Assembly (NCBI GenBank): GCA_002719295.1
Contig: PBHC01000018.1
Span: 1 to 41,656 of the forward strand
Origin: Chloroflexota bacterium
GTDB lineage: Bacteria > Chloroflexota > Dehalococcoidia > Lucifugimonadales > Lucifugimonadaceae
Direction of reading: 5' to 3'
Length of the DNA stretch: 41,656 nucleotides
Positions 1 to 30,164 of this stretch are shown piece by piece (position 1 is the first letter of the stretch; each line of letters begins with the position of its first letter). Position numbers and translations under genes: made by a program. A model generated the notes under the pieces. The model did not search any database and was not told the DNA's origin. It saw only the letters and a list, made by a program, of their open reading frames with translations.

Positions 1-128
1 CCAGGCATTGCTCCACCCATTGGGTCGTTTGGTCCCATAGCTCCAGGCATTCCGCCAGCAGCAGGGTCACCCATTCCAGGCATTGCTCCACTCATTGGGT
101 CGTTTGGTCCCATAGCTCCAGGCATTCC
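1..128. repeat. Coding direct repeat, 53 bp at 75-bp period (GMPGAMGPNDPM[G/S]GAMPG)
   Basis: 1-53 and 76-128 are identical except for one base. Confidence 0.9.
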
Positions 129-3100
129 AGGTGCTCCCATTCCAGGTGCTCCCATTCCAGGTGCTCCCATTCCAGGTGTAGCTCCAGCAGCAGCTTCTCT
201 TGCAGCTATTGCTTCAGGGGTTTCACCAGGATATAAAGGTTCTCCAGGTACTGGAATATCACCACTTGGCATTCCAGTAGCAGGATCTATAGTTCCAGCA
301 GGTGCTCCCATTGAACCAGGTCCCATTGGCCCAGCAGCCGGGTCACCCATTCCAGGCATTCCAGCAGCAGGATTACCCATTCCAGGCATTCCAGCATTAG
401 GTCCAGTCATTCCAGGCATAGATCCAGCAGCCGGGTCACCCATTCCAGGCATTCCAGCATTGGGTCCAGTCATACCAGGCGCTCCCATTGGTCCAGGCAT
501 TGGTCCTGCAGCAGGGTCTGTTGGTGCAGGTGCACCTCCAGCTGCTCCAGGCATTGGTCCAGCCATTGGTCCAGGCATTGGAGCCATCTGCATTCCAGCA
601 GCGGCATTGTTTGGATCAAATTCAAAGTTTTGAGGGCCAAAATCTATCCCTCTGTCCATAATATCTGAAGATGCAGCATCAATTAGATTGTCAAACATAC
701 CTCCACCAACAGCAAAAGGACTTGGTCCCATATTAGGACCACTAAATGGATCCATAGTTGGTGCCATTGAGGCGAATGGATCGGCAAATCCAAATGTGTC
801 CATTGCAGGTCCGGGCATAGGAGCTGTCATAGGAGCTGTCATAGGAGCCATCATTCCAGGCGCTCCCATTGGTCCAGTTCCAGTAGGTCCAGTTCCAGCC
901 ATTGGTCCCATCATTCCAGGTCCAGCCATTGGAGGTGCTACAAAAATATCTCTTTCAATACCAAGAGCTTCATTATATGCTCCTTGTACTTCAAAAGACT
1001 TGTTAGCAAATGCTGTAGCTTCATTCATAGCTCTAGCATCTTCAAAAGCATTTAAATCTTCAAAGAAATCTCCGCCGATATCTTCAGCAGCTAGTTCTGT
1101 GGCATATACATCATTTGCACTTCCAAATGAATAGTCCATCATTGGACCAAAGAAGTTTCCTCCAGGTGCAGGAGGAGGAGGCATTGGGCCTAAACCACCA
1201 TTAGCTACAGTTGGAGCATATCCACCAAATTCAGGTCCTGCTATTGCAAATAAGTCGTCCATTCCAGCAAAGTCATTTTCTATAGCAAATCCAGTCATCC
1301 CAGCAGCTGGATCATAAAAATCTGCAGCTCCACCAGGTCCACCGGGTCCACCAGGTCCACCAGGTCCAGGCATTGGAGGCATGGCAGGCCCAAACATTGC
1401 GTTAAGGTCTAGTGAAAATTCCATTGAAGGTCCAACAGGTGCTCCCATTGGTCCAGATCCAGCAGGTCCAGTTCCAGCCATTGGTCCTGCAGACGGACCA
1501 AATGGATTAGCAAACGGATCAGCAAATGGATCAGCAAATGGATCAGCAAATGCATCACCCATCATAGGGTTATAAGCAGCTCCAAATTCTTCATTTTTAG
1601 CAGCTCTTGTCATAAAAGTCATTTCTCCAAGGTTTCCACCCGAGAAGTCAATTCCAAAACCACCAGGTGCAGCCATTCCAGGTGCTCCCATTGGTCCAGA
1701 TCCAGCAGGTCCAGTTCCAGCCATTGGTCCAGCATTAGGGCCAGGCATTGGAGGAGCCATATCCATTGCAGAGAAGAACATCATATCATTTTGAGCAAAG
1801 GAAACAGCATCACCAGGTCCACCCATTGGTCCCATTCCTGGTCCGCCCATCCCCATAGGTCCTCCCATTACAATCGGAGGAGGAATAAATCCTGCTAAAT
1901 GTCCGTCTTCTGTAAATAAAGTCTGACCTCCGATTTCAGCGATTACCGCTCTACCATCAGCATCAAAAGATAAGACTTCAACTTTTTCTTCTATTTTTGC
2001 AAGAACAGCATCACTTTGAGATGCGTCTCTGAAACAGTCTTGTGTAAGACACATAACCTCAGTTATTGGTTGGAATCCAGCAACTTCACCAGTTGCAGAA
2101 TCTCTATATATTTCTTGCATTCTAAATTCATCACCTGTTCTTTGAGTACCACCTGCATCAAAGAAAGATTCAGTTTGACCTGAAAGGTCATAGGCATCAA
2201 AATCATACATTGCAGTAGATGGTCCAGGTCCCCCCGGTCCACCAGGTCCACCAGGTCCTCCCGGTCCAACCATTCCCGGTCCAGCATATTGTGCAATTTT
2301 ATCCATAGCTCCAGATGGTATAAATCCTAGAGGCGCTCCAAACCCACCTACTCCCATTCCACCACCTGCTCCAGGTCCTTCCATTGGCATAGCAGCAAAA
2401 GAGTCTTGTATTAATGTAGCTTGTTCTGAGAAGAAGTTTTTTGACAAAACTCTTCCAGCTTCAAAACCAGAAACTCCAGCATCACCAACCATAAGTTTTG
2501 GAGGCTCACTCATTCCGAGAGGATCTCCATTTTCATCAAATACTATTGGAGGAGGAACATTGAATTCTCTAATTCCACCTGCAGCATCTTTAACAATCAT
2601 TGGCATTTCAACTTGAGTTGCAATTGAGCCATCCGGATTATAATCAAAAATTGGTAAATCAGGAGGTGTTAGTGCCGCTCCTGAAGGGTCTACAAAATCA
2701 TCAGAGAATGGTAATGTACCCACTGGGTTACCTAAAGGGTCATATTGGATTATTGTAGGAACAATATTTCCATCAGGGTCAAACGTAACCATATTTAATG
2801 CTTGTTCTCCAGCTCCACCAATTTCACTTCCTGTTGGAACTTTAGGTAAGAATGCATTAAAGAATGTAGTTGCGTGTAACTTATCATCTCCTCCCTTATC
2901 TTTTAGATAGAAAACATCTGGAACAGCGGCTTCTGCATCAATAGCTCCTGTTTCATCAACAGCAACCATGTCTCCAGGTTTTTTACCAATTGGATTTCCT
3001 GTAGCATCAAACACTACTTGGTCAGGCTGTTTTACACCAATTTGTTTTCCTTCTTCATCAAATAGAGGTTCTGACCTAGGTGGCTCGAACTCAGCTTTTC

Positions 3101-4820
3101 TTAGTTCTCTTAGTGCTTCTAGGTCAAGTCTTTCACCTGAAACTGCATCAATATCTGCAGCCATAATTAATGGCTCTACCTGAATATCAATTTCTCCATT
3201 AGCAATTAGTTCTTCAAGAATTGCAGGGTCTGCTTGTTCCTCAGTTAGTGTTTTTATTTCAGGTTCAAATTCATTGAAAATTTCAGCTGCGGCACCTTCT
3301 GATTCTGCTATTGTATCGTTTACAACAACCGCAACTTCGCTAAATAATTCTTCTGCTACTGCTACTGCAGATTCAATATCTCCACCATCTACTATAGCTT
3401 GAACTGCATCAGGCCCAGCAAGTGCAGCAAGTTCAACTGTATTATTCACATCAGCTATGCCTGCTTCTTCTGCAGCTCCTAGTAAAGCGTCTGGGTCAGG
3501 AACTACATCCCCTACATCAACTCCTAGATCAGCAACATAAGCTATGTCTTTCATCATTATTATATCGTTTGGTCCAAACTCACCATCACCATCTATATCA
3601 GGGATGGCTGCAGCCGCACCTTCTACTCCATCTGGTGGAGCTTGAGGAGGCATTACATCTTTTACTTCAGCTTTTTCATATGCAACACCAGGTTTTACTA
3701 CAGCAGCTTCTAATGAACTGTCACCTTTTTCACCTACTGGAATAAATGGGCCATCCGTTGGAACCCATCCTAATGGAGGACCACCAACATCACCAGGGAC
3801 TAATCCAGTACCACCAGTGATATCATCTGCGTCAGTAGGAGTTACTGGGTCTGGCTTCTCTTGACCCATTTTGACCATAGTTGCAGTACCTTCTAGTAGC
3901 TCAACTTTGAAATCAGTTTCAATTTCAAGTTTATTTTCTTCTTCTAAAATTTCTAAATCTTCTAGGTCTAGATCTATATCGGCATCATCTGCTTCATCTG
4001 AGGCATCAAATTCATCTTTAAAATCTAATTCTTCATCAGTTAAGTCATCACCTTCACTCTCCTTAACTTCAATAGTAAGGGCAGCTTCTTGGTCAACTGA
4101 AAGAGGCTCTTCTCCAGCTTCTTTTCTTTCAGCATTCTTTTTATTTATAACTAATTTTGCTTTATCCTCTGAGGATAATTCTTCTTGCTTAACATTTACT
4201 CGTCTACCAAGGCTTCCTTCTGTACCTTGAATAGTTATTGCTCCATCAACAGTTAGGAATACCCATGTGTTTGGAGGTGATTCAGCTTTAATTACGTTAA
4301 AATCTACATCTCCGTTATCTAATGCTATTCTTGCGTGCCTTTGTCCTCCTTGAGCAGGTCCTCCATTTACTATGTCGAATTTATCTATAGTAATTTGAGT
4401 ACTTGGCTTGATAGCTAGTTGACTTCCATCAACGAATTTAAGTACAGCTCTAGAAACAGCTAGTGTTCTTACTGACCAACCTGGTTCAATTGGTTGAGCA
4501 TCTATAACATCTACCCATTCTTCTGAACCTGGAGTCCTAAACTGAGCTTTCCCTTCTAGAACATCAATAGCGGTTGGAGGGCTAATGATTTCTAAAGTTT
4601 GTGTAAGTGTTCCAGTTTCAAAGCTTGGAGTTGCTGCATCTTTGCTAGCAGGTTTGCTATCTTTAGCAGTTGAAGCTGCATAAGCATCAGCATCAGCTTT
4701 CGCATCAGATGCTACCTCAGCAGGTTCTTCTGTTCCTCCTCCACAAGCAATTATAAATAATCCTGTAAGAATCATGAGGATTGAGATCATAAATTTTTTA
4801 GAGTAAATGTTAAAATTCAT
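1..4820 (-). CDS. Giant predicted lipoprotein (>1606 aa, runs off the window) with N-terminal FecR-like domain, acidic middle region and Met/Gly/Pro/Ala-rich low-complexity C-terminal part
   Basis: Manual translation from ATG at 4820: MNFNIYSKKFMISILMILTGLFIIA-C-GGGTEE (lipobox); no stop seen and the same frame still reads M-P-G at positions 8-1. FecR-like motifs DVLEGKAQ, SVRT..SRAVLKFVDGSQLAIKPSTQITI, IALDNGDV, AITIQGT, VELLEG. Absent from the ORF track, presumably because its stop is outside the window. Confidence 0.9.
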   Translation of the reverse strand, partial: MNFNIYSKKFMISILMILTGLFIIACGGGTEEPAEVASDAKADADAYAASTAKDSKPASKDAATPSFETGTLTQTLEIISPPTAIDVLEGKAQFRTPGSEEWVDVIDAQPIEPGWSVRTLAVSRAVLKFVDGSQLAIKPSTQITIDKFDIVNGGPAQGGQRHARIALDNGDVDFNVIKAESPPNTWVFLTVDGAITIQGTEGSLGRRVNVKQEELSSEDKAKLVINKKNAERKEAGEEPLSVDQEAALTIEVKESEGDDLTDEELDFKDEFDASDEADDADIDLDLEDLEILEEENKLEIETDFKVELLEGTATMVKMGQEKPDPVTPTDADDITGGTGLVPGDVGGPPLGWVPTDGPFIPVGEKGDSSLEAAVVKPGVAYEKAEVKDVMPPQAPPDGVEGAAAAIPDIDGDGEFGPNDIIMMKDIAYVADLGVDVGDVVPDPDALLGAAEEAGIADVNNTVELAALAGPDAVQAIVDGGDIESAVAVAEELFSEVAVVVNDTIAESEGAAAEIFNEFEPEIKTLTEEQADPAILEELIANGEIDIQVEPLIMAADIDAVSGERLDLEALRELRKAEFEPPRSEPLFDEEGKQIGVKQPDQVVFDATGNPIGKKPGDMVAVDETGAIDAEAAVPDVFYLKDKGGDDKLHATTFFNAFLPKVPTGSEIGGAGEQALNMVTFDPDGNIVPTIIQYDPLGNPVGTLPFSDDFVDPSGAALTPPDLPIFDYNPDGSIATQVEMPMIVKDAAGGIREFNVPPPIVFDENGDPLGMSEPPKLMVGDAGVSGFEAGRVLSKNFFSEQATLIQDSFAAMPMEGPGAGGGMGVGGFGAPLGFIPSGAMDKIAQYAGPGMVGPGGPGGPGGPGGPGPSTAMYDFDAYDLSGQTESFFDAGGTQRTGDEFRMQEIYRDSATGEVAGFQPITEVMCLTQDCFRDASQSDAVLAKIEEKVEVLSFDADGRAVIAEIGGQTLFTEDGHLAGFIPPPIVMGGPMGMGGPGMGPMGGPGDAVSFAQNDMMFFSAMDMAPPMPGPNAGPMAGTGPAGSGPMGAPGMAAPGGFGIDFSGGNLGEMTFMTRAAKNEEFGAAYNPMMGDAFADPFADPFADPFANPFGPSAGPMAGTGPAGSGPMGAPVGPSMEFSLDLNAMFGPAMPPMPGPGGPGGPGGPGGAADFYDPAAGMTGFAIENDFAGMDDLFAIAGPEFGGYAPTVANGGLGPMPPPPAPGGNFFGPMMDYSFGSANDVYATELAAEDIGGDFFEDLNAFEDARAMNEATAFANKSFEVQGAYNEALGIERDIFVAPPMAGPGMMGPMAGTGPTGTGPMGAPGMMAPMTAPMTAPMPGPAMDTFGFADPFASMAPTMDPFSGPNMGPSPFAVGGGMFDNLIDAASSDIMDRGIDFGPQNFEFDPNNAAAGMQMAPMPGPMAGPMPGAAGGAPAPTDPAAGPMPGPMGAPGMTGPNAGMPGMGDPAAGSMPGMTGPNAGMPGMGNPAAGMPGMGDPAAGPMGPGSMGAPAGTIDPATGMPSGDIPVPGEPLYPGETPEAIAAREAAAGATPGMGAPGMGAPGMGAPGMPGAMGPNDPMSGAMPGMGDPAAGGMPGAMGPNDPMGGAMP
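124..178. repeat. Coding tandem repeat, 15-bp unit attccaggtgctccc (GAPGM) x3+
   Basis: Directly visible tandem copies. Confidence 0.9.
1436..1730. repeat. Identical 52-bp direct repeats (1436-1487, 1679-1730; GPMAGTGPAGSGPMGAP) flanking a 12-bp (ADPF)n tandem; a third diverged copy at ~861-908
   Basis: Direct sequence comparison. Confidence 0.9.
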
Positions 4821-4979
4821 ATTAATTTCCTAATTATTTTTAATAACTGAAATCATTATACTTCAACCACCATATTTTTTGTTAGTTAAAATTTTAATCA
4901 TTTTTTACTATTTTTTATCTATTTAAAAAATATTCAAAATTTATATTTTTTTATTTGTTTTTTAAGTATAATTTTATAA

Positions 4980-5693
4980 ATGAATAAAGATGATAACAAA
5001 TCTAAAATAACACCTGAAACTGTTAGGTCTAAAACAATATCAGGGGACAGAAAAATAAAAGGTCAAAAAATAGGAATATTTGATTATTTTAGAGTTCAAT
5101 TTCAGAATCCAGGCATTGGATTTTTAGCTACAGTTTTTTTGGGAGTTCTTGTGCTACTTGCAATTCCAATTTATCCAAAAGTAGCGTCAGCTGTAGAATT
5201 AAATGAACAAAAAAAAGTTAAATTTGAAGAAAAATTAATGCCTAGATCCTTAGCTATTCCAGTAAATATGTTGCCTTATCTTAGATTTCAGCATTTAGCT
5301 TTGAAAAACGGAAAATATGCTTCATGGCATGAACCTGTTTTTAAATCAGGTTCATGTGATCAGAAAAATTTAGCTACAATGCCTGAAGGAATCTATAAAA
5401 GAGCTATTATTACAGGTTGTTTTCAATTTCATGAGATACAAGGCCAACATTCTGATTTATGCAAGATAGACAATTGCGAATTAGATCCTATTTTAATTAC
5501 AAGAATAGACTACATTATGAGTCAAATTGAAGAACCGTATTGGGGGAAAGGCTTTGTTGATGAAGTGAACCCTTGTTCAGGGTCTCTTCAAAGACAATCT
5601 GATGAACCATGTGGTTATAATTATGATACAGCTAAAAAAGAACCTAAATTTGTTATTTCATTAGATGAAAATTACAGATCTGCTTCTTTATAG
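4980..5693 (+). CDS. Hypothetical membrane-anchored or secreted protein with six Cys
   Basis: 237-aa ORF in AT-rich DNA; one hydrophobic segment GIGFLATVFLGVLVLLAIPIY followed by VASA; no family recognised. Confidence 0.7.
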   Translation: MNKDDNKSKITPETVRSKTISGDRKIKGQKIGIFDYFRVQFQNPGIGFLATVFLGVLVLLAIPIYPKVASAVELNEQKKVKFEEKLMPRSLAIPVNMLPYLRFQHLALKNGKYASWHEPVFKSGSCDQKNLATMPEGIYKRAIITGCFQFHEIQGQHSDLCKIDNCELDPILITRIDYIMSQIEEPYWGKGFVDEVNPCSGSLQRQSDEPCGYNYDTAKKEPKFVISLDENYRSASL

Positions 5694-6178
5694 ATCTTTA
5701 TTCTTTCAACATAAAATTTTCCAGCACCTTTGATTAATTCTAGGTGCCTATCAAGTATCCTGCCTATATTTTTCCCTGGAATTCCCCTTACAATTGAATT
5801 GTCTGGGATATCTGTTCCTTCAATTACTACTGAACCAGCTGCAACTAGGCAATTATTTCCAATAGTAACATTATCGTTTAATACAGCACCATTTCCTATA
5901 AGTGTATTGTTACCTATTTTTTTTGAGTGAATAACAACTCCATGGCCTATCGTGACATCGTCACCAATAGATGACCCATAATCAGAATGTACAACTGAGT
6001 TATCTTGAATATTTGTTCTTTTCCCAATTGATATTTTTCCATTGTCAGCTCTCACAACGGCTCCAGGCCAAATTGAAGAATCTTCGTCTATTTCTACTTC
6101 TCCTACAACGTAAGCAACTTCATTTACATATGCTTTTTTATTTATCTTTGGGATTAATTCACCTAAGCTTTTTATCAT
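5672..6178 (-). CDS. Gamma carbonic anhydrase family protein (YrdA/CaiE/PaaY-like)
   Basis: Hexapeptide repeats, SIWPGAVVRAD, TNIQDNSVVH, TIGHGVVIH (three His ligands). Confidence 0.93.
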   Translation of the reverse strand: MIKSLGELIPKINKKAYVNEVAYVVGEVEIDEDSSIWPGAVVRADNGKISIGKRTNIQDNSVVHSDYGSSIGDDVTIGHGVVIHSKKIGNNTLIGNGAVLNDNVTIGNNCLVAAGSVVIEGTDIPDNSIVRGIPGKNIGRILDRHLELIKGAGKFYVERIKIYKEADL

Positions 6179-7842: not shown

Positions 7843-8292
7843 TTAATTTTCAAAGTTAAGTTCGATCTTTTTATTGGTTATTTTGTTTAAAACTTCAAAA
7901 GGGAACTCTTCTTTTGCTTTTATAGTTTCACCATTATCAAGAATTAAATAAAATTCTACATTATTTTTTATATCTTCTTTATTTCTTGGACCAATAATCA
8001 AATTTTCAAACGTAGAATTTTTACTTAATATTATCGGAGAATCTAATTCCCCTAGCATTGATTTAATCTTAGAATTATTTCCCCCTTTTTCTCCATTCAG
8101 GTAAAATGTTCCATTAAAAATATATGGATAACTTGGAAGCCCTGGAGGTAATCCAACAGGAGCATTTTGAGTAACATTTTGGTCATCATCTTTCGGTAAC
8201 TCTGAATCAGGTACGTTAGCGCAAGAATAGAATAAACATATAAAAAATAAGCCTAAATAAAATATTAAATTTTTGGATGCTTTAAGTGCCAT
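7843..8292 (-). CDS. Hypothetical lipoprotein with a probable beta-sandwich domain
   Basis: Hydrophobic leader ending FYS-C; PPGLP linker; domain resembles those of 18233-19264; fills the gap between gatA and argS. Confidence 0.75.
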   Translation of the reverse strand: MALKASKNLIFYLGLFFICLFYSCANVPDSELPKDDDQNVTQNAPVGLPPGLPSYPYIFNGTFYLNGEKGGNNSKIKSMLGELDSPIILSKNSTFENLIIGPRNKEDIKNNVEFYLILDNGETIKAKEEFPFEVLNKITNKKIELNFEN

Positions 8293-13684: not shown

Positions 13685-13915
13685 TTATTTCATAACTTTT
13701 AAATTATTTTATTTAGTTTGGATGAATCAAGAAAACTATGAACGTTTTGGCATAATTATAACTTTTTGTGTAATTCGTTGTAAGAATTGTTGATTTATCT
13801 GAGAAATTTAGATAAAGTAAGATAAGGTTTATTAATAGCTATAGCTGTTTGTGTTATAAACGCGTAGCTGTTGAGACCAAATTAAACTAAATTATTCATG
13901 AGAGGTAGTATCGAG

Positions 13916-16900
13916 ATGAATACATTAAAACAAATTGCGAGCCGAGCAATGGTTTTTGTGTTAGCACTTGCAGTATTAGTTCCAGCGCTTATAATGGCTG
14001 GGGATAATAACTCTGTGCAAGCAGAAAAACTGGCTACGGTTTATTTAACAAACAAAGGAACTGGTTTCACTACTGAAGCTTCACCTCCTTCTGCAAGGTC
14101 TAACCCTGCTTCAAGGAAGAATGCTTCAACAGTATATGTGACTATGACTGATGTTGACACAGCGAATGATGTGAAGAACTCACACATTTTAAATGCCAAC
14201 AAGGTTGTTATTACAGTTGTGGAGTCAGATTATAATAAGAAAGTTTCAGCTACATCAGGTAATTTAGCTATTACTGCTGCTGGAACTGCAAACACAAAAA
14301 CTCTTGTTATACCTGGAAAAGCTGGAGATCCAGTTATTGACTCAGATGGCGATGGAGACCTTAGTGATGAGGTAGGATTCGTTATATGTCAAGATGGTCA
14401 AGTTCCAGTATTTACAGGTAGTGCAGTTTCATCTGCATGTGCTGCGCCTGAAGGACCTACTGCACAAATCGTGTCAGTGGCTAACGGTGACTCAGCAACA
14501 AGTACTTCAGCTACTCCTATGATTACTGTTTACATAACAGGTCAAGGTGGAGACTCAGCTGAAGATAATGATGATGCATTCGTTGGATACTATACATCTG
14601 CTGTAAACACATTCCAGGTTAAAGCTTGGTCAACAGTTCAGTTAGAATCTAATGCTAGTGACATTTCAGTTGTTGAAACTGGAAGAAACACTGGTGTTTT
14701 TGAAGCTGAATTTTTGGTTGCTGATACAGAAGGTGTTAATGATAACACTGCAGCTCTAGACGCTCAAAATGGTTGGAATGCTACTGCTGGTAACGCTTTC
14801 GGTACTGGTGGTAAAGTGCCACAATCTTTGAACGCTGCTATTGCTGCTGGTATAGCAAACAGTGCTGACGGAAGATTCGATGCTTCTGACGGACAAAGTG
14901 CCGATGCTGAGTGGACGCTAATTGCTGATAACTTAGACGTTGGTGGAGCAATTGCTACTTCTGGCGGAAACACATCAGGAACAATAACACTTCCTGCTGG
15001 ATCATGGATTGCCGATCCAGATGGAGATGGATCTATAACAGATTCATTTGTTCTGCTTGATGATGGTGGCGGTACAGACATTGTTGACGCTAACCACGGT
15101 ACTGGTACAACTGTGAACACAGTAACATGTTCTGGTACGGTAGATACTACATGTACTAAACCTACAGCTGCTGCTAGAACAATTGTATTGAACATAACAC
15201 CTACTGCAGCTATTGCTAATGGTGTTTCTGACGTAGCTGACATAGCTGCTATTGTTTCAGACAATGTTGTAAACAATCAAAAATTTGATACTAATAACTC
15301 TGATACTATTGATGCCACTGACCTTAAGAGTGGTAGACCTGGATCAGACACACAATCAGGTGGTGGTGGAGCTCTTGGCTTGACTACTCCTGCTGCTTTA
15401 GGAATTGATAGAACTCCAATTGTAGAAGCGCAAGCAAATGCTACTCTAACAGTTCAATATCAAGACCTAACAGATAATTCAACTTCAACTACTGCTACTA
15501 CAGGGACAAAAGTTAAAGCAACTGTAACTGTTGATGTTTCGGCACCAACTCCAGTTGTATCAAGTCCTACATCAGGTAGCTCATTCAAGGACAGACAGCC
15601 TTCATTCGCTGGATCAGTGACTGATATTGGTTCTGGTATTGATGTAAGTACAGCTGTACTTTACGTTGATATGTTGAGTGATGCTGCTGCTGATGGTTTG
15701 ACAAGTGCACTGTCAACTACTGAATTGACTGCACAAAGAGCATGGTTGGGTGGAGCTGGTACAATTACAGGTAATGATCGATATGATCAATTTGCTGTAA
15801 CATTGGACAACTCTACTACTATGAAAGATGGAGTTTCAAGTATTACTTGGAAAGTTGCTACAACAGCAAACATTCCTTGTAGTACAGGTTCTGCAGATGG
15901 AACTGCTCACGGAGCATTAGATGATACTGGTGGAGACGGTACAAATTCTGCAACAAACTCACACACAGGTTTTGTTGGTCTGATTTCTTGTAACGCTGCA
16001 CTATCTACTCCAGATGTTGTTGTAGACTATACTTTAGCTGCAATTGACCTAGCTGGAAACAGAGGGTTCAGTGACTCGAAATCTACCGATACAGATACTA
16101 CTGCTATTGGAGATCCGTACACAATAAATATTGACGAACAAAAACCAGTCATTCAAGCCGCTGACACAAAAACTGGTGTTTACTGGAACGCAGCAACTTT
16201 TGCTGAAAAAGGTAATGACGCTACAAAAATTGTTGTTGGTTTCAATGACGAAATAGGTTCAGTTTCTGCTTCTTCTTTCGAAGTAAAGACAGATGCTGGT
16301 GTTACAATGACTCCTACTCTTGCTGAAATAGGCCCTAAGGGTACTGACGCAAATGGTAAGAGTTTTGATAAGAGAAAAATGGTGTACCTAACACTTCCAA
16401 GTTCTCTTCCAACTAACGATACTCCTCAAGTAAAACTTGTTGGCGATGTAGCTGACTTAGCTGGTAACTCAACTAAATCAGGAACAGTTACAGGCGCTAT
16501 TCACAAGCTAAAGCCAAACTTAACTATGACATTGTCTGGTGGATCAGGAACAGGTGCTTCTGGTACTTCTAATGATTCAGATTCTCTAACTAAGAGTGCT
16601 ATGACAATAACAATTACTACAGACGAAGTTTTGGCTTCACCTCCTACTATAAACGTTTTCAACGAAAATTATGGTAAAACAGGTGCTTATGCTCAACTTT
16701 CAGCTTCTACTGCCCTAACAACATTAGGTGCTGGTAACAGTCAAAACGTTGATATAGCTGCCAATACAATTGTTGATACAGATAAAGATGGTTCACTTAC
16801 TGATGAAATTACATTGGAATCAGTGAACATAACATCTACAGCATTAGCTGACCTTGCTGTAACATCAGTTACAAATGGTGGTGATGGTAACGCTGACAAT

Positions 16901-18145
16901 GTAAGAATCGTAATTAAGAACAATGGCTCTGCTGCTTTGCCTGCTGCTAATGATGATGTAAAAATCTCTGGTAACACAAACGCAGCTTTGACTTCTGCTT
17001 CTGATGAAGTAGCAGTTGAAGGTACAGTTGCTGCTGTTGCACAAGATTCTAAAACATACACAGCAAACTTCACAGGTAGCGCATTTTCAGATGCAGCTGC
17101 TGATGATACAAAAATTATTTATGTAACTGCAAATGATGCAAGTACATCAACAAATACAGGTACAGTAGGTAAGCATGATTCGTCTGCAACTGGTGCATTC
17201 TCATTCAGGCTTGATAAAACTGCTCCTGTTCTAAAGAATGACCCAGATGGTGATGGTACAGTAGGTACAACTACAACTTTGCCAAGACCATACGTTATAT
17301 TTGAATTTACTGATAATTCAAACGTAACTGTTGTATCTGCTACATTCGGTGGAGATGATGTATTAGCAAAACTTGCTACTACAAACAATAAAAAATACTT
17401 TATGGTTCCTGAAAGTGACCTTTCATCATCAACTTATGCCGTAAAAGCAAAAGGTACTGACCTTGCTGGCAACAAAGGTGCTGAAGGTTCTTACAACCTA
17501 AAAGTTACTGCTAGAAAAGATTATAAAGCAACTCTTCTAGCTGGTTGGAACTTGATGTCATTCCCGTCTGATCCTGTATCAAATGGTGTTGGCTCAGTGT
17601 TCACAAACACAGGAATTGACCAGGTGGTTGGTTATGATGCTATGGCTAAAGGATCACCTTGGATGGTAGCAACTAAAGATTCTGCATCAGGATCGTTTAG
17701 TGGTAGCTTATCTACAATCCACTCAGGTCAAGGATACTGGATACATTCAACAGAATTTGCTTCTCAGAGCGTTTCTTTGACTGGTCCAGAAGGTCCAAGT
17801 GCTTCAGCCCCACCATCAATTCCATCTATTGAACTTGCTTCAGGTTGGAACTTAATTGGTGTAGTTGACGCAACTAAAGCTTTGACTCAAGCTAATGAAG
17901 GAACAGTTTATACTACTAATGCTAGTTACTTAGGACAATGTAATGGTTCTTCTGTGACTAAGGCGTATGAATACGATACTTCTAACCTAACTTGGGTATC
18001 AATAGCTATAGATGAAGGTGTTGCTAACTTTACAGCTTGTGCATCAAACGATTCAACTGATGCTCAAAATGTAAACATTGGTGAAGCATTCTGGGTATTT
18101 GCTACTCCAGCAGCTTCAGGATTATTGACACCTATCGTTCCATAA
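13916..18145 (+). CDS. Large secreted surface (S-layer-like) protein, ~1409 aa, Ala/Thr/Gly/Asp/Ser-rich with probable Ig-like modules
   Basis: Signal peptide; GAGGT RBS 9 nt before ATG 13916; ETGRNTGVF motif; several DxDxDG loops; DLAGN motifs; two C-terminal GWNL repeats; codon usage typical of high expression; own terminator. Confidence 0.8.
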   Translation: MNTLKQIASRAMVFVLALAVLVPALIMAGDNNSVQAEKLATVYLTNKGTGFTTEASPPSARSNPASRKNASTVYVTMTDVDTANDVKNSHILNANKVVITVVESDYNKKVSATSGNLAITAAGTANTKTLVIPGKAGDPVIDSDGDGDLSDEVGFVICQDGQVPVFTGSAVSSACAAPEGPTAQIVSVANGDSATSTSATPMITVYITGQGGDSAEDNDDAFVGYYTSAVNTFQVKAWSTVQLESNASDISVVETGRNTGVFEAEFLVADTEGVNDNTAALDAQNGWNATAGNAFGTGGKVPQSLNAAIAAGIANSADGRFDASDGQSADAEWTLIADNLDVGGAIATSGGNTSGTITLPAGSWIADPDGDGSITDSFVLLDDGGGTDIVDANHGTGTTVNTVTCSGTVDTTCTKPTAAARTIVLNITPTAAIANGVSDVADIAAIVSDNVVNNQKFDTNNSDTIDATDLKSGRPGSDTQSGGGGALGLTTPAALGIDRTPIVEAQANATLTVQYQDLTDNSTSTTATTGTKVKATVTVDVSAPTPVVSSPTSGSSFKDRQPSFAGSVTDIGSGIDVSTAVLYVDMLSDAAADGLTSALSTTELTAQRAWLGGAGTITGNDRYDQFAVTLDNSTTMKDGVSSITWKVATTANIPCSTGSADGTAHGALDDTGGDGTNSATNSHTGFVGLISCNAALSTPDVVVDYTLAAIDLAGNRGFSDSKSTDTDTTAIGDPYTINIDEQKPVIQAADTKTGVYWNAATFAEKGNDATKIVVGFNDEIGSVSASSFEVKTDAGVTMTPTLAEIGPKGTDANGKSFDKRKMVYLTLPSSLPTNDTPQVKLVGDVADLAGNSTKSGTVTGAIHKLKPNLTMTLSGGSGTGASGTSNDSDSLTKSAMTITITTDEVLASPPTINVFNENYGKTGAYAQLSASTALTTLGAGNSQNVDIAANTIVDTDKDGSLTDEITLESVNITSTALADLAVTSVTNGGDGNADNVRIVIKNNGSAALPAANDDVKISGNTNAALTSASDEVAVEGTVAAVAQDSKTYTANFTGSAFSDAAADDTKIIYVTANDASTSTNTGTVGKHDSSATGAFSFRLDKTAPVLKNDPDGDGTVGTTTTLPRPYVIFEFTDNSNVTVVSATFGGDDVLAKLATTNNKKYFMVPESDLSSSTYAVKAKGTDLAGNKGAEGSYNLKVTARKDYKATLLAGWNLMSFPSDPVSNGVGSVFTNTGIDQVVGYDAMAKGSPWMVATKDSASGSFSGSLSTIHSGQGYWIHSTEFASQSVSLTGPEGPSASAPPSIPSIELASGWNLIGVVDATKALTQANEGTVYTTNASYLGQCNGSSVTKAYEYDTSNLTWVSIAIDEGVANFTACASNDSTDAQNVNIGEAFWVFATPAASGLLTPIVP

Positions 18146-18232: not shown

Positions 18233-19264
18233 TTGACTATGAAAAAAATATTACAACTTATTTTATTAATGATGGTAGTTCCTGTAGCTATAGCGAATTC
18301 TCATGCTGATGAGATTAATGCTCAAGATATTCCTGAACTCCATATGCTTGTCTATCAAGGTGATGTTATGATGTCAGGTTCATTTCAAAAGACGTCTGAT
18401 CTAGATGGATTACTTTTAGAAGCAAAAATAGGAGATACAGTTGTTGGATCTGCAAGAATAGGAGATTTTTTAACTGGTCGATTTAGTGCACTTGAAATCG
18501 GTCCAAATGTTGCACTAGAAGGATCTACTGTAACCTTTTGGGTAGGAGATCAAAAAGCGTTAGAAACTGACATTTTTGGACCACTTACTGTACAAGGTGA
18601 ATATTGTAAAGGCTGTACATGGTCTCTCCCTATATCCAGATCTTTAAATTTACATTTTAATTCAGTACCATTGCCAACTCCTACTCCTGCCCCTGCTTTA
18701 GCTGAACCTAGTTTCATAACAGGAACTCTTATATTTGGATCAATTCTTGCTGCGCCAGAGGGTGTTAATATAATTGAAGCTTATATAGATAACGAACTTG
18801 TCGGATCAGGTACAGTTAGTGGATCAAATTTTAGTATAACTATTGATCCAGGAAATGAAACTTACTTAGGGAAGAAGGTTTCATTTAAAATCGCAGGATA
18901 TGATTCAAAAACATCATATACCTTTGTTGAAAACGATTTTATTACTGAATTTAAATTATTTTTCCCACAATATATCCCTGCAACATCTACTCCTACCCCT
19001 GCTCCTGTATCATCACCTGTTCCAACAGCTACTTCAATTCCTGAACCAACTAGAACTCCTACACCGGTTCCTGAGCCAACTGCTACTTATACAGCGACCG
19101 CAACTCCTACCCCTATAGTATTGAGTACATCTTCAAATGAAATCATGACAGAACAATCTGATGGAGGATGTAATTCTAGAGGCGGTGGCCCTGCTAGTGT
19201 TGGACTTATATTACTATCTTTGGTCCCTGTATACTTACTTAATAGAAAAAAAAGAACTGGTTAA
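18233..19264 (+). CDS. Secreted protein with two related beta-rich domains, Pro/Thr linker and C-terminal GGC-hydrophobic-basic sorting-like tail
   Basis: Signal peptide (start could be ATG 18239); PTPTP linkers; ends DGGCNSRGGGPASVGLILLSLVPVYLLNRKKRTG. Confidence 0.85.
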   Translation: MTMKKILQLILLMMVVPVAIANSHADEINAQDIPELHMLVYQGDVMMSGSFQKTSDLDGLLLEAKIGDTVVGSARIGDFLTGRFSALEIGPNVALEGSTVTFWVGDQKALETDIFGPLTVQGEYCKGCTWSLPISRSLNLHFNSVPLPTPTPAPALAEPSFITGTLIFGSILAAPEGVNIIEAYIDNELVGSGTVSGSNFSITIDPGNETYLGKKVSFKIAGYDSKTSYTFVENDFITEFKLFFPQYIPATSTPTPAPVSSPVPTATSIPEPTRTPTPVPEPTATYTATATPTPIVLSTSSNEIMTEQSDGGCNSRGGGPASVGLILLSLVPVYLLNRKKRTG

Positions 19265-29059: not shown

Positions 29060-30164
29060 ATGCAAATAAAAGAACTTTTAGACGAGGCCTCAAGATTAAG
29101 AAATTCTATCTCTGAAATTTTGAGGAATCTTTGACACAAAAAAACTTTCTGAAGAAATTTCTAAACTAGAAAAAGATACAACTGACGATAATATTTGGGA
29201 TGATAGTCATAGGGCTCAAAGACTTTTTAAGAATCTTAAATCCAAAAAAGATCAATTTGATCTATATATTTTTTTAGACAATAAATCAAAAGAAATAATA
29301 GAATTATGTGAAATTTCTATAGATCTAAATGATGATTCTAGCCTCCAAAATATCAAGGATGAAATTTTATCACTTGATGAAAAATTTAAAAAAGCATCAT
29401 TGAATTTGAAATTAAATGGAGAATTTGATCAAAGAAATGCAATTGTTGGAATTAAGCAGGGTGCTGGAGGTGTAGATTCACAAGATTGGGCTGAAATATT
29501 ATTTAGAATGTATAAGAGATGGGCAGAACTTAAATCTTTTTCAGTTGAAATAATTGACTATTCCCCTGGAGATGAAGCAGGAATTAAGTCTGTTATTTTT
29601 AGAGTAGAAGGAGAGAATGCATATGGACTGCTTCAATCTGAAAAAGGAGCACATCGATTAGTAAGGATTTCTCCTTTTGATACTGGTAATAGAAGACATA
29701 CTTCTTTTTCCCTAGTTGAAATAATGCCTGAATTAGAAAATGAAGAAGAAGTAAAAATTGACACAAAAGACTTAAGAATAGATGTTTTTAAGGCTGGAGG
29801 TGCAGGCGGTCAAAGTGTTCAAAAAAATTCTACGGCAGTAAGAATAACTCATTTACCTACCAATATTTCTGTGTCTGTGCAAAATGAAAGATCTCAATTA
29901 ATGAATAAAGAACTTGCTATGAAAATTTTGCAAGGAAGATTAAAAGAATTAGAAATTTTAGAAAATAAAAAGAGAGATGCTGAAATAAAAGGAGAACATG
30001 TTTCGGCCGACTTTGGTTCCCAAATTAGATCTTATGTAATGCATCCTTACAAAATGGTAAAAGATCATAGAACTAATTTTGAAACTAGTGATATTGATAA
30101 AGTTTTAGATGGAAATATAGATAACTTAATTGAAGAATATCTATTAAAAAACATTTCAGTATAA
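29060..30164 (+). CDS. prfB: Peptide chain release factor 2 with programmed +1 frameshift (~367 aa)
   Basis: ATG 29060, 24 codons to CTT-TGA-C (29129-29135); the +1 frame (DTKKLSEE..IWDD) is in frame with ORF 29400-30164; SPF and GGQ motifs. Confidence 0.97.
29120..29135 (+). promoter_or_regulatory. prfB frameshift cassette
   Basis: TTGAGG-AAT-CTTTGAC: SD-like GAGG 3 nt before the slippery CTT TGA C. Confidence 0.93.

Follow-up and report, generated by a model that had tools for sequence, protein, structure and literature searches.

The stretch analysed here, called the window below, is 41,656 nucleotides (nt) long and is the entire contig C18 (PBHC01000018.1) of genome G000 (GenBank assembly GCA_002719295.1), a Chloroflexota bacterium of 1.27 Mb, about 30% guanine plus cytosine (GC) and 81% completeness. 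One end of it encodes the greater part of a giant lipoprotein. The model favoured for this protein, with a probability of roughly 40%, is a lipid-anchored, self-cleaving head that holds a large passenger as a sheddable acidic brush. In this model, a lipoprotein of about 1,800 residues, in which a FecR-type head is followed by a conserved, folded middle part and then by an extended tail of low complexity, would be anchored by Cys26. The head would then cut itself at Gly199|Thr200. Both pieces would stay locked in the β-solenoid of the head, with the C-terminal passenger of about 1,580 amino acids (aa) held non-covalently. Finally, the passenger would be displayed as an acidic, brush-like coat that can be shed.

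The gene and its predicted parts are listed by window position, with residue numbers in brackets.

3..4820, minus strand: open reading frame (ORF) of the giant lipoprotein, first 1,606 aa; no stop before the contig end
G000:C15:2-526, plus strand: probable C-terminal 174 aa and stop of the same protein; terminator-like hairpin after it
4743..4820, minus strand: lipoprotein signal peptide (aa 1-26) with lipobox IIA-C (Cys26), read from sequence; a Cys-bearing signal is kept in full-length relatives
4596..4742, minus strand: variable linker (aa 27-75), Ala/Asp-rich here and Pro/Thr-rich in relatives (alignments A1 and A2)
4179..4574, minus strand: main part of the FecR-like β-solenoid (aa 83-214)
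4221..4226, minus strand: Gly199-Thr200, predicted autoproteolytic site, in register with E. coli FecR G181-T182 and invariant in 13 of 13 rows of A2
3948..4172, minus strand: acidic helical insertion inside the FecR domain (aa 217-291), lineage-specific; helices in the model
3654..3935, minus strand: the other β-strands of the head (aa 296-321 and 367-389), separated by a variable Gly/Pro loop (alignment, model)
3579..3599, minus strand: DIDGDGE motif (aa 408-414), found in a subset of relatives, which we take to be a Dx[DN]xDG-type calcium-binding loop; binding is putative
3093..3572, minus strand: acidic α-helical domain (aa 417-576) with a conserved A(L)xGxxA motif (alignments, model)
2394..3092, minus strand: β-hairpin-repeat domain, part 1 (aa 577-809), with [FY][DN]xxG turns; predicted local distance difference test (pLDDT) mostly 80-94
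2211..2393, minus strand: variable loop rich in Gly, Pro and Met (aa 810-870), for the most part disordered in the model (alignment occupancy, model)
1866..2210, minus strand: β-hairpin domain, part 2 (aa 871-985), with a conserved Cys924-x4-Cys929 pair (model); ratio of nonsynonymous to synonymous substitution rates (dN/dS) 0.03-0.07
3..1865, minus strand: acidic G/P/A/M low-complexity tail (aa 986-1606 and beyond) of tandem repeats, mostly disordered in the model
963..1073, minus strand: 37-residue amphipathic tail helix (aa 1250-1286), conserved in marine relatives; pLDDT 60-70

The frame runs for 1,606 codons without a stop, from 4820 to 3, and continues past the window edge. It is a real gene under purifying selection, because contigs from two DNA runs tile most of it with few differences and dN/dS against four relatives is low: 0.008-0.032 in the head, the most constrained region of the protein, 0.025-0.087 in the hairpin domain and 0.12-0.41 in the tail. 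An earlier note, made from the DNA letters, had described an uninterrupted minus-strand frame with lipobox IIA-C, to be abandoned if in-frame stops or a misassembly came to light. The frame and its Cys26 stand. The tiling, the dN/dS values and the existence of complete relatives rule out both a misassembly and a shadow frame. A 210-aa frame on the plus strand at 1-633 is the antisense of the tail repeats.

The gene very likely ends at the beginning of contig C15 of the same genome. A 174-aa open frame there is built of the same G/P/A/M repeats; it closes with a Pro-rich run and a stop codon, beyond which come a hairpin and a lipoprotein gene. The end of C18 and the start of C15 share no exact overlap. 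They are joined across a gap on the strength of synteny: the DNA of L035, a complete relative of 1,699 aa, matches both contigs and enters the same next gene, and L041 has the same downstream gene order as C15. Extending the contig, as the earlier note advised, has thus probably given the stop codon and the downstream gene, and the match between L035 and C15 would put the full length at about 1,800 aa. The gene directly 3' of the probable end (G000:C15:600-1373, plus strand) encodes a 257-aa lipoprotein with WTPTPTP repeats, as it does in L035 and L041.

Contigs from RNA libraries of three studies cover the giant gene as well as a 1,415-aa S-layer-like gene in the window. They end at 4799-4841, the 5' end of the giant gene, and are missing from bin 5281-5940 in all four RNA runs. 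These contigs give a weak hint of expression. The RNA runs were picked via the giant gene, so their depth cannot rank genes.

The protein is likely attached through a lipid at Cys26 to the external side of a cell that has a single membrane. It has the features of a bacterial lipoprotein, namely a type II signal peptide and a lipobox Cys, with both Lgt and LspA encoded in G000; lipidation itself is predicted. A search for a second anchor found none: the best 19-residue hydropathy past the signal is 1.47, within an acidic helix, and the tail on C15 has no such segment.

The head belongs to the FecR domain family. Residues 1-320 score 26.5 bits against PF04773, above the gathering cut-off of 24 (the whole protein scores 21.4), and the model shows a PupR-type β-solenoid. 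It is the one FecR domain in G000. The structural search VIA, run with a 925-aa model, tested mainly the head and the helical insertion, and in the ESM Atlas the relative P0012 returns FecR clusters at 0.87. The insertion is poorly shared, with an occupancy of only 4-21% at aa 226-300 in divergent rows.

Two methods place Gly199-Thr200 in register with Gly181-Thr182 of E. coli FecR. The pair is found in all 34 covering rows of the 36-row alignment A4, and A2, with its 13 rows, was built before the pattern-based locus scans. For FecR itself, the accessible part of one report locates the first cut at G181-T182, proposes self-cleavage as in FoxR and describes the pieces as staying associated (PMC12036975). 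By analogy with FecR, FoxR and LipL45, the giant protein would likely cleave itself at Gly199|Thr200 by an N→O acyl shift, and it is nearly as probable that the two pieces would remain together.

Several statements of the earlier note can be judged at this point. Its FecR-like domain at aa 82-315 clears the Pfam cut-off and forms the modelled solenoid, while its idea of FecR as a processing module gains from the Gly-Thr pair, which aligns with the place where FecR is cut. That the fold is lipid-anchored and serves no signalling purpose is supported by the presence of Lgt and LspA, by the lack of a cytoplasmic domain and by the lack of a second hydrophobic segment. The note had also seen neither partner of a classical FecR protein nor a cytoplasmic anti-sigma domain. 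This holds on a wider search: no extracytoplasmic function (ECF) sigma factor or TonB-dependent receptor is among the neighbours on C18 or C15 or in an operon with the gene, and profiles for the TonB receptor (PF00593) and ECF sigma region 4 (PF08281) find nothing in the 81% complete G000.

Between the head and the tail, aa ~417-985 are conserved and are modelled with confidence as a helical domain and a β-hairpin-repeat domain. The note had read an acidic middle running into a Met/Gly/Pro/Ala-rich body; low complexity does begin at aa ~986, but this conserved region, folded in the model, had been overlooked. Turn motifs occur 9 times in aa 576-985 against 0.57 expected, a number reached in none of 2,000 shuffles. 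The monomer models as one self-contained body, with a predicted template modelling score (pTM) of 0.77, and the surface polymer and the assembly module proposed in the note gain no support here.

The core has no match in Pfam (aa 575-990, E≤0.01) or among PHROG families. In NCBIfam the only hit is Mycoplasma PlpA (E=0.013; 13.8 bits, where the cut-off is 1,300), which was not accepted. Searches against PDB sequences gave no match with alignment A3, and with A5 gave MtxA (4z29) at E 3e-4 plus one non-significant row. The ESM Atlas returned no usable match for the core, and Foldseek no global match for the hairpin domain, with template modelling (TM) scores of at most 0.07. This ~400-aa β-hairpin domain is the most unusual part of the protein; it has no recognised family, and its fold is possibly new.

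The tail contains short Phe-containing motifs up to about aa 1400, including 9 FG dipeptides within aa 986-1400, and beyond that almost only G/P/A/M. Met makes up 12% of it, and by Met content the whole protein stands at rank 1086 of 1,088 ORFs. Its side-chain nitrogen amounts to 0.133 per residue, compared with a median of 0.315, and only 4 of the 1,088 ORFs are lower. The tails of complete relatives are all of low complexity, rich in G/P/A (L019, L035, L041), P/T (L058) or P/G/D/E (L064), while P0020 finishes with repeats of Lys/Pro/Glu and P0006 with repeats of Cys/His. Tails keep their length and low complexity and change their chemistry among lineages. In the model, the folded domains sit nearest the membrane, with the disordered part farther out, an arrangement that suits a brush better than a stalk-and-tip adhesin.

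This layout, the charge of the tail and its interchangeability lead to a possible role, which is the weakest part of the favoured model and is put forward tentatively. The ~800-residue acidic, nitrogen-poor tail could be a steric and electrostatic shield against phage, grazers and sticking, and the cleaved head could be a break point that spares the cell when an attached particle tears the coat.

The host is taken to be a small-genome marine member of the Dehalococcoidia, likely of SAR202. Cultured SAR202 cells are described in the available portion of PMC10444878 as monoderm, without peptidoglycan genes and with a visible outer layer, and the part of PMC10284905 at hand places the loss of peptidoglycan before the marine radiation. 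In G000, 81% complete, no match to the transpeptidases of penicillin-binding proteins (PBPs) was found.

Two scans of the collections, which yielded 16 loci from 77 candidate stretches and 38 from 247, gave 54 loci with relatives of the gene. In 44 of these loci the frame runs off the contig. A stop is reached in the other 10, of which 5 are credible complete genes of 1,158-1,813 aa and 5 are short, gapped or apparently chimeric. Loci whose proteins are 66-89% identical mostly bear Chloroflexota or Dehalococcoidia record titles, and nearly all sequencing runs that contain this DNA are labelled marine or seawater. More widely, relatives occur in low-GC marine records and in high-GC records, the latter including groundwater. 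The FecR head precedes the core in every relative in which the N-terminal region is present, and P0002, P0007, P0094 and P0099, which have no such region, are probably fragments. The tree of relatives is a quick one with long branches, and no order of events was drawn from it.

Among genomes, a long profile matches 47 of 301 in the class, a tally that takes in the unpublished G262, a genome used for no other result, mostly through other proteins with FecR domains. The match extends into the core in 4 of 301, G000 included, and a core profile matches 2 of 401 genomes in the phylum; both counts are lower bounds. A further 43 Dehalococcoidia-class genomes hold other proteins with FecR-like domains, in open frames of 150-1,170 aa and in monoderm cells.

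Within the genus, a head query matches 3 of 12 other genomes. True patchiness is not supported by this, as flanking genes are also missing from genomes without the giant gene. Of 5 such genomes, 4 gave no match to the adjacent hexapeptide gene and none gave a match to argS, the latter in a search with no positive control of its own. The family is rare in samples of metagenome-assembled genomes partly because its repeats break assemblies, and the giant gene may be core in the genus, since the apparent absences coincide with unassembled regions. The five genomes in which argS was not found (G007, G001, G009, G010 and G011) are rated 83-97% complete, and the stretch appears to drop out of bins. 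In G003 the contig ends about 40 nt past the gene upstream of the giant gene. A sixth overall match of the head query, in G019 (E 7e-4), was discarded because it sits in a Pro-rich lipoprotein of the solute-binding type.

Some records stand apart. The match on G208:C296 has one TAG in the head region. L013 (89% identical) is titled "uncultured archaeon" and L020 "Neomarinimicrobiota", and both are probably misbinned Chloroflexota contigs. P0085 has a second FecR domain inserted in its hairpin domain. In P0014 a partial core is followed by Ig/PKD-like domains, and in P0015 by other sequence.

A number of observations count against a self-cleaving head that carries a brush. The alignments that place the pair in register with E. 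coli FecR are weak, at 12 bits and an hhalign probability of 26%, and the window's own head matches no NCBIfam family. The Gly-Thr count in A4 is in part circular, since IQGT stood in one of the search patterns. Across 31 aligned head rows, conservation is 90% or more for the Gly but below 90% for the Thr. The Gly-Thr pair of FoxR is termed "nonconserved" in the accessible text of PMC7186176, so a FecR fold is no guarantee of cleavage. The tail is not a random brush, because its Phe motifs and its helix are conserved. The hairpin domain is conserved beyond the need of a pedestal, which hints at a specific binding partner, and the layouts of P0014 and P0015 are adhesin-like.

These last points lead to a rather unlikely but substantial alternative, a releasable adhesin or ligand-binding lipoprotein, in which binding to a polymer, particle or other cell would fall to the hairpin domain, or else to the tail's Phe motifs, and the cleaved head would let go. 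Release of this kind has been proposed for proteins of the LipL45/Lsa33 type, and LapA retention modules offer an analogy. Such a protein would explain the strong conservation of the hairpin domain and the Ig/PKD-like domains of P0014, and it agrees with the matches of head relatives to the LipL45, Lsa33 and retention_LapA models and with the very weak core match to PlpA. FecR proteins of Leptospira bind host components in vitro, according to the available part of PMC13719327. In an adhesin, however, the folded domains would be close to the membrane and covered by a disordered acidic tail of ~800 residues. The Pfam, NCBIfam and PHROG scans revealed no known binding domain, and the hosts are small-genome marine cells. 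A structural part of the envelope, the reading nearest to the surface polymer of the earlier note, is less likely still. The protein would then be an S-layer tether or spacer in a cell without peptidoglycan, or would build a lattice or gel via the hairpin domain, the helix and the Phe-Gly motifs. The lack of PBP matches in G000 fits this, as do the FG dipeptides, the conserved amphipathic helix and a gene that may be core in the genus. The S-layer-like gene lies 9 kb away in G000 and has a counterpart in the matching place in L035, and RNA contigs lie over both genes. Yet the monomer folds without partners in the model, no S-layer-like neighbour occurs in the other neighbourhood types viewed, and the full architecture in 4 of 301 class genomes is too few even when assembly loss is allowed for.

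Methionine scavenges oxidants and binds Cu(I) and Ag(I), and the tail could on this basis be a chemical sink, either a surface antioxidant or a metal sponge, which the remainder of the protein would serve to display. Its extreme Met content speaks for this, and light inhibits cultured SAR202 in the portion of PMC10444878 consulted. The idea is improbable, given that the tails of L058, L064, P0006 and P0020 are not Met-rich. A signal transducer of the FecR/RsgI type, in which proteolysis would continue once the passenger is lost and would lead to a transcriptional response, would make use of the FecR fold and the Gly-Thr site. It is largely excluded: nothing cytoplasmic or transmembrane exists beyond the cleaved signal, the sigma and receptor searches in G000 were empty, and the neighbours are not regulators and vary among lineages. 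Least probable of all is a container like the RHS/YD shells, whose hairpins would cage and deliver the C-terminal tail. The [FY][DN]xxG motif resembles the YD turn, and the top Foldseek rows for both models are RHS and teneurin shells, with E down to 2e-5. These rows were rejected as local hairpin likeness (probability ≤0.23, TM ≤0.07, root-mean-square deviation 26-29 Å); the domain has only ~400 residues and 9 motifs, none of the 5 complete relatives ends in a toxin-like domain, and no small immunity-like gene lies downstream in the loci viewed.

The closest known counterparts of the giant protein are FecR lipoproteins of Leptospira. LipL45 (NF033165), Lsa33 (NF047849) and LIC_20185 likewise consist of a lipoprotein signal and a FecR domain with a GT motif, and the accessible part of PMC13719327 reports this motif in LipL45 and LIC_20185, together with a surface role and fragmentation of recombinant LIC_20185. 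The principle of a FecR-domain surface lipoprotein with a GT motif is thus already known. When 31 head relatives were scanned at E≤0.1, 20 matched LipL45, 17 matched Lsa33 and 10 matched the LapA retention module, with a single match to canonical FecR. Relatives reach 20-55 bits against the LipL45 and Lsa33 cut-offs of 350 and 420, P0018 and P0085 being among these weak matches, and the window protein matches neither model. It works most like LipL45-type lipoproteins yet stands outside the LipL45 family. The two models span 310-391 positions and describe proteins of diderm spirochaetes, whereas the giant protein, at ~1,800 aa, adds the helical domain, the ~400-aa β-hairpin domain and the ~800-aa disordered tail.

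Other systems are more distant. The anti-sigma factors FecR, FoxR and PupR (PF04773; PDB 6OVK/6OVM, 4M0H) share the domain, but the giant protein lacks their cytoplasmic anti-sigma domain and transmembrane helix, has no ECF sigma factor or TonB receptor that could be found, and carries a 75-aa helical insertion. LapA-type adhesins (NF033682) are giant too and have an N-terminal module related to the head family (best E 1.7e-6 among the 10 matching relatives). They are secreted by a type I system, held in an outer-membrane pore and released by LapG proteolysis near the N-terminus. The window protein has a lipoprotein signal instead and no NF033682, Ig or RTX family match; secretion genes were not searched. 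RHS/YD shells, found in Rhs effectors and teneurins, are likewise strings of β-hairpins with aromatic-Asp-x-x-Gly turns, but they do not superpose globally on the hairpin domain and have far more repeats, and no toxin cargo or immunity gene was seen here.

Membrane-tethered mucins have a self-cleaved SEA domain close to the membrane, which keeps hold of a large extracellular portion by non-covalent contacts. The same tether principle is found in RsgI, CwpV and the GAIN domains of adhesion GPCRs. The likeness of all these to the giant protein is one of working principle only, as no relationship in sequence or fold was found. The full comparison is speculative, and doubtful as a whole: a counterpart of the tethered mucins, with a FecR β-solenoid as self-cleaved break-away joint, a hairpin domain of possibly new fold and a ~800-residue nitrogen-poor brush, forming a sheddable coat on wall-less ocean Chloroflexota and overlooked since repeats break assemblies.

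The literature searched, which excluded most subscription papers and supplements, describes neither this architecture nor this family, although proteomic supplements could list the protein, and it held no paper with both SAR202 and FecR. What is new relative to that literature is the protein family and the hairpin domain. Marine Dehalococcoidia, SAR202 included, are widespread monoderms without peptidoglycan genes as far as the accessible text of PMC10444878 goes, and their coat is little described. The giant protein offers a concrete, conserved and probably expressed candidate for a major surface component. It would also carry self-cleavage of FecR domains beyond iron signalling and the small lipoproteins of Leptospira, to what may be a release joint for a giant passenger. 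A practical blind spot is exposed as well, in that the giant gene and the adjacent essential argS are missing from same-genus assemblies rated 83-97% complete.

The giant gene has a terminator-like hairpin at its 3' side and is divergent from a gene for a 237-aa multi-Cys membrane protein (4980-5693, plus strand), which keeps its position in same-genus loci and has no significant family match. The neighbours are housekeeping and metabolic genes, identified by a family scan in the window and recognised by sequence elsewhere, and relatives show several unrelated arrangements.

The 1,415-aa gene (13898-18145, plus strand) encodes a secreted Thr/Ala/Asp/Gly/Ser-rich protein with no Pfam, NCBIfam or PHROG match and no paralogue in G000; its S-layer-like label comes from composition and layout. 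RNA contigs over it show many divergent variants and loose ends, which suggests a variable surface protein. Two exported proteins without a family (18233-19264, plus strand; 7843-8292, minus strand) share similar short motifs, PxxFxG...G, and are possibly associated with the S-layer. The first, of 343 aa, has Pro-Thr repeats and a C-terminal hydrophobic tail with basic end residues.

An ordinary prfB gene, for release factor 2, lies at ~29060-30164 (plus strand), with the usual programmed +1 frameshift near 29130 at CTT TGA C, presumably the prfB frameshift motif. Elsewhere in G000, contig C20 repeats a 15.7-kb part of C1 (C1:28834-44532) at 99.5% identity, and long ORFs with identical starts are doubled on C11/C17 and C12/C19; all three pairs are probably strain redundancy in the bin. 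The C1/C20 region encodes a 992-aa secreted Met/Gln-rich, multi-Cys protein.

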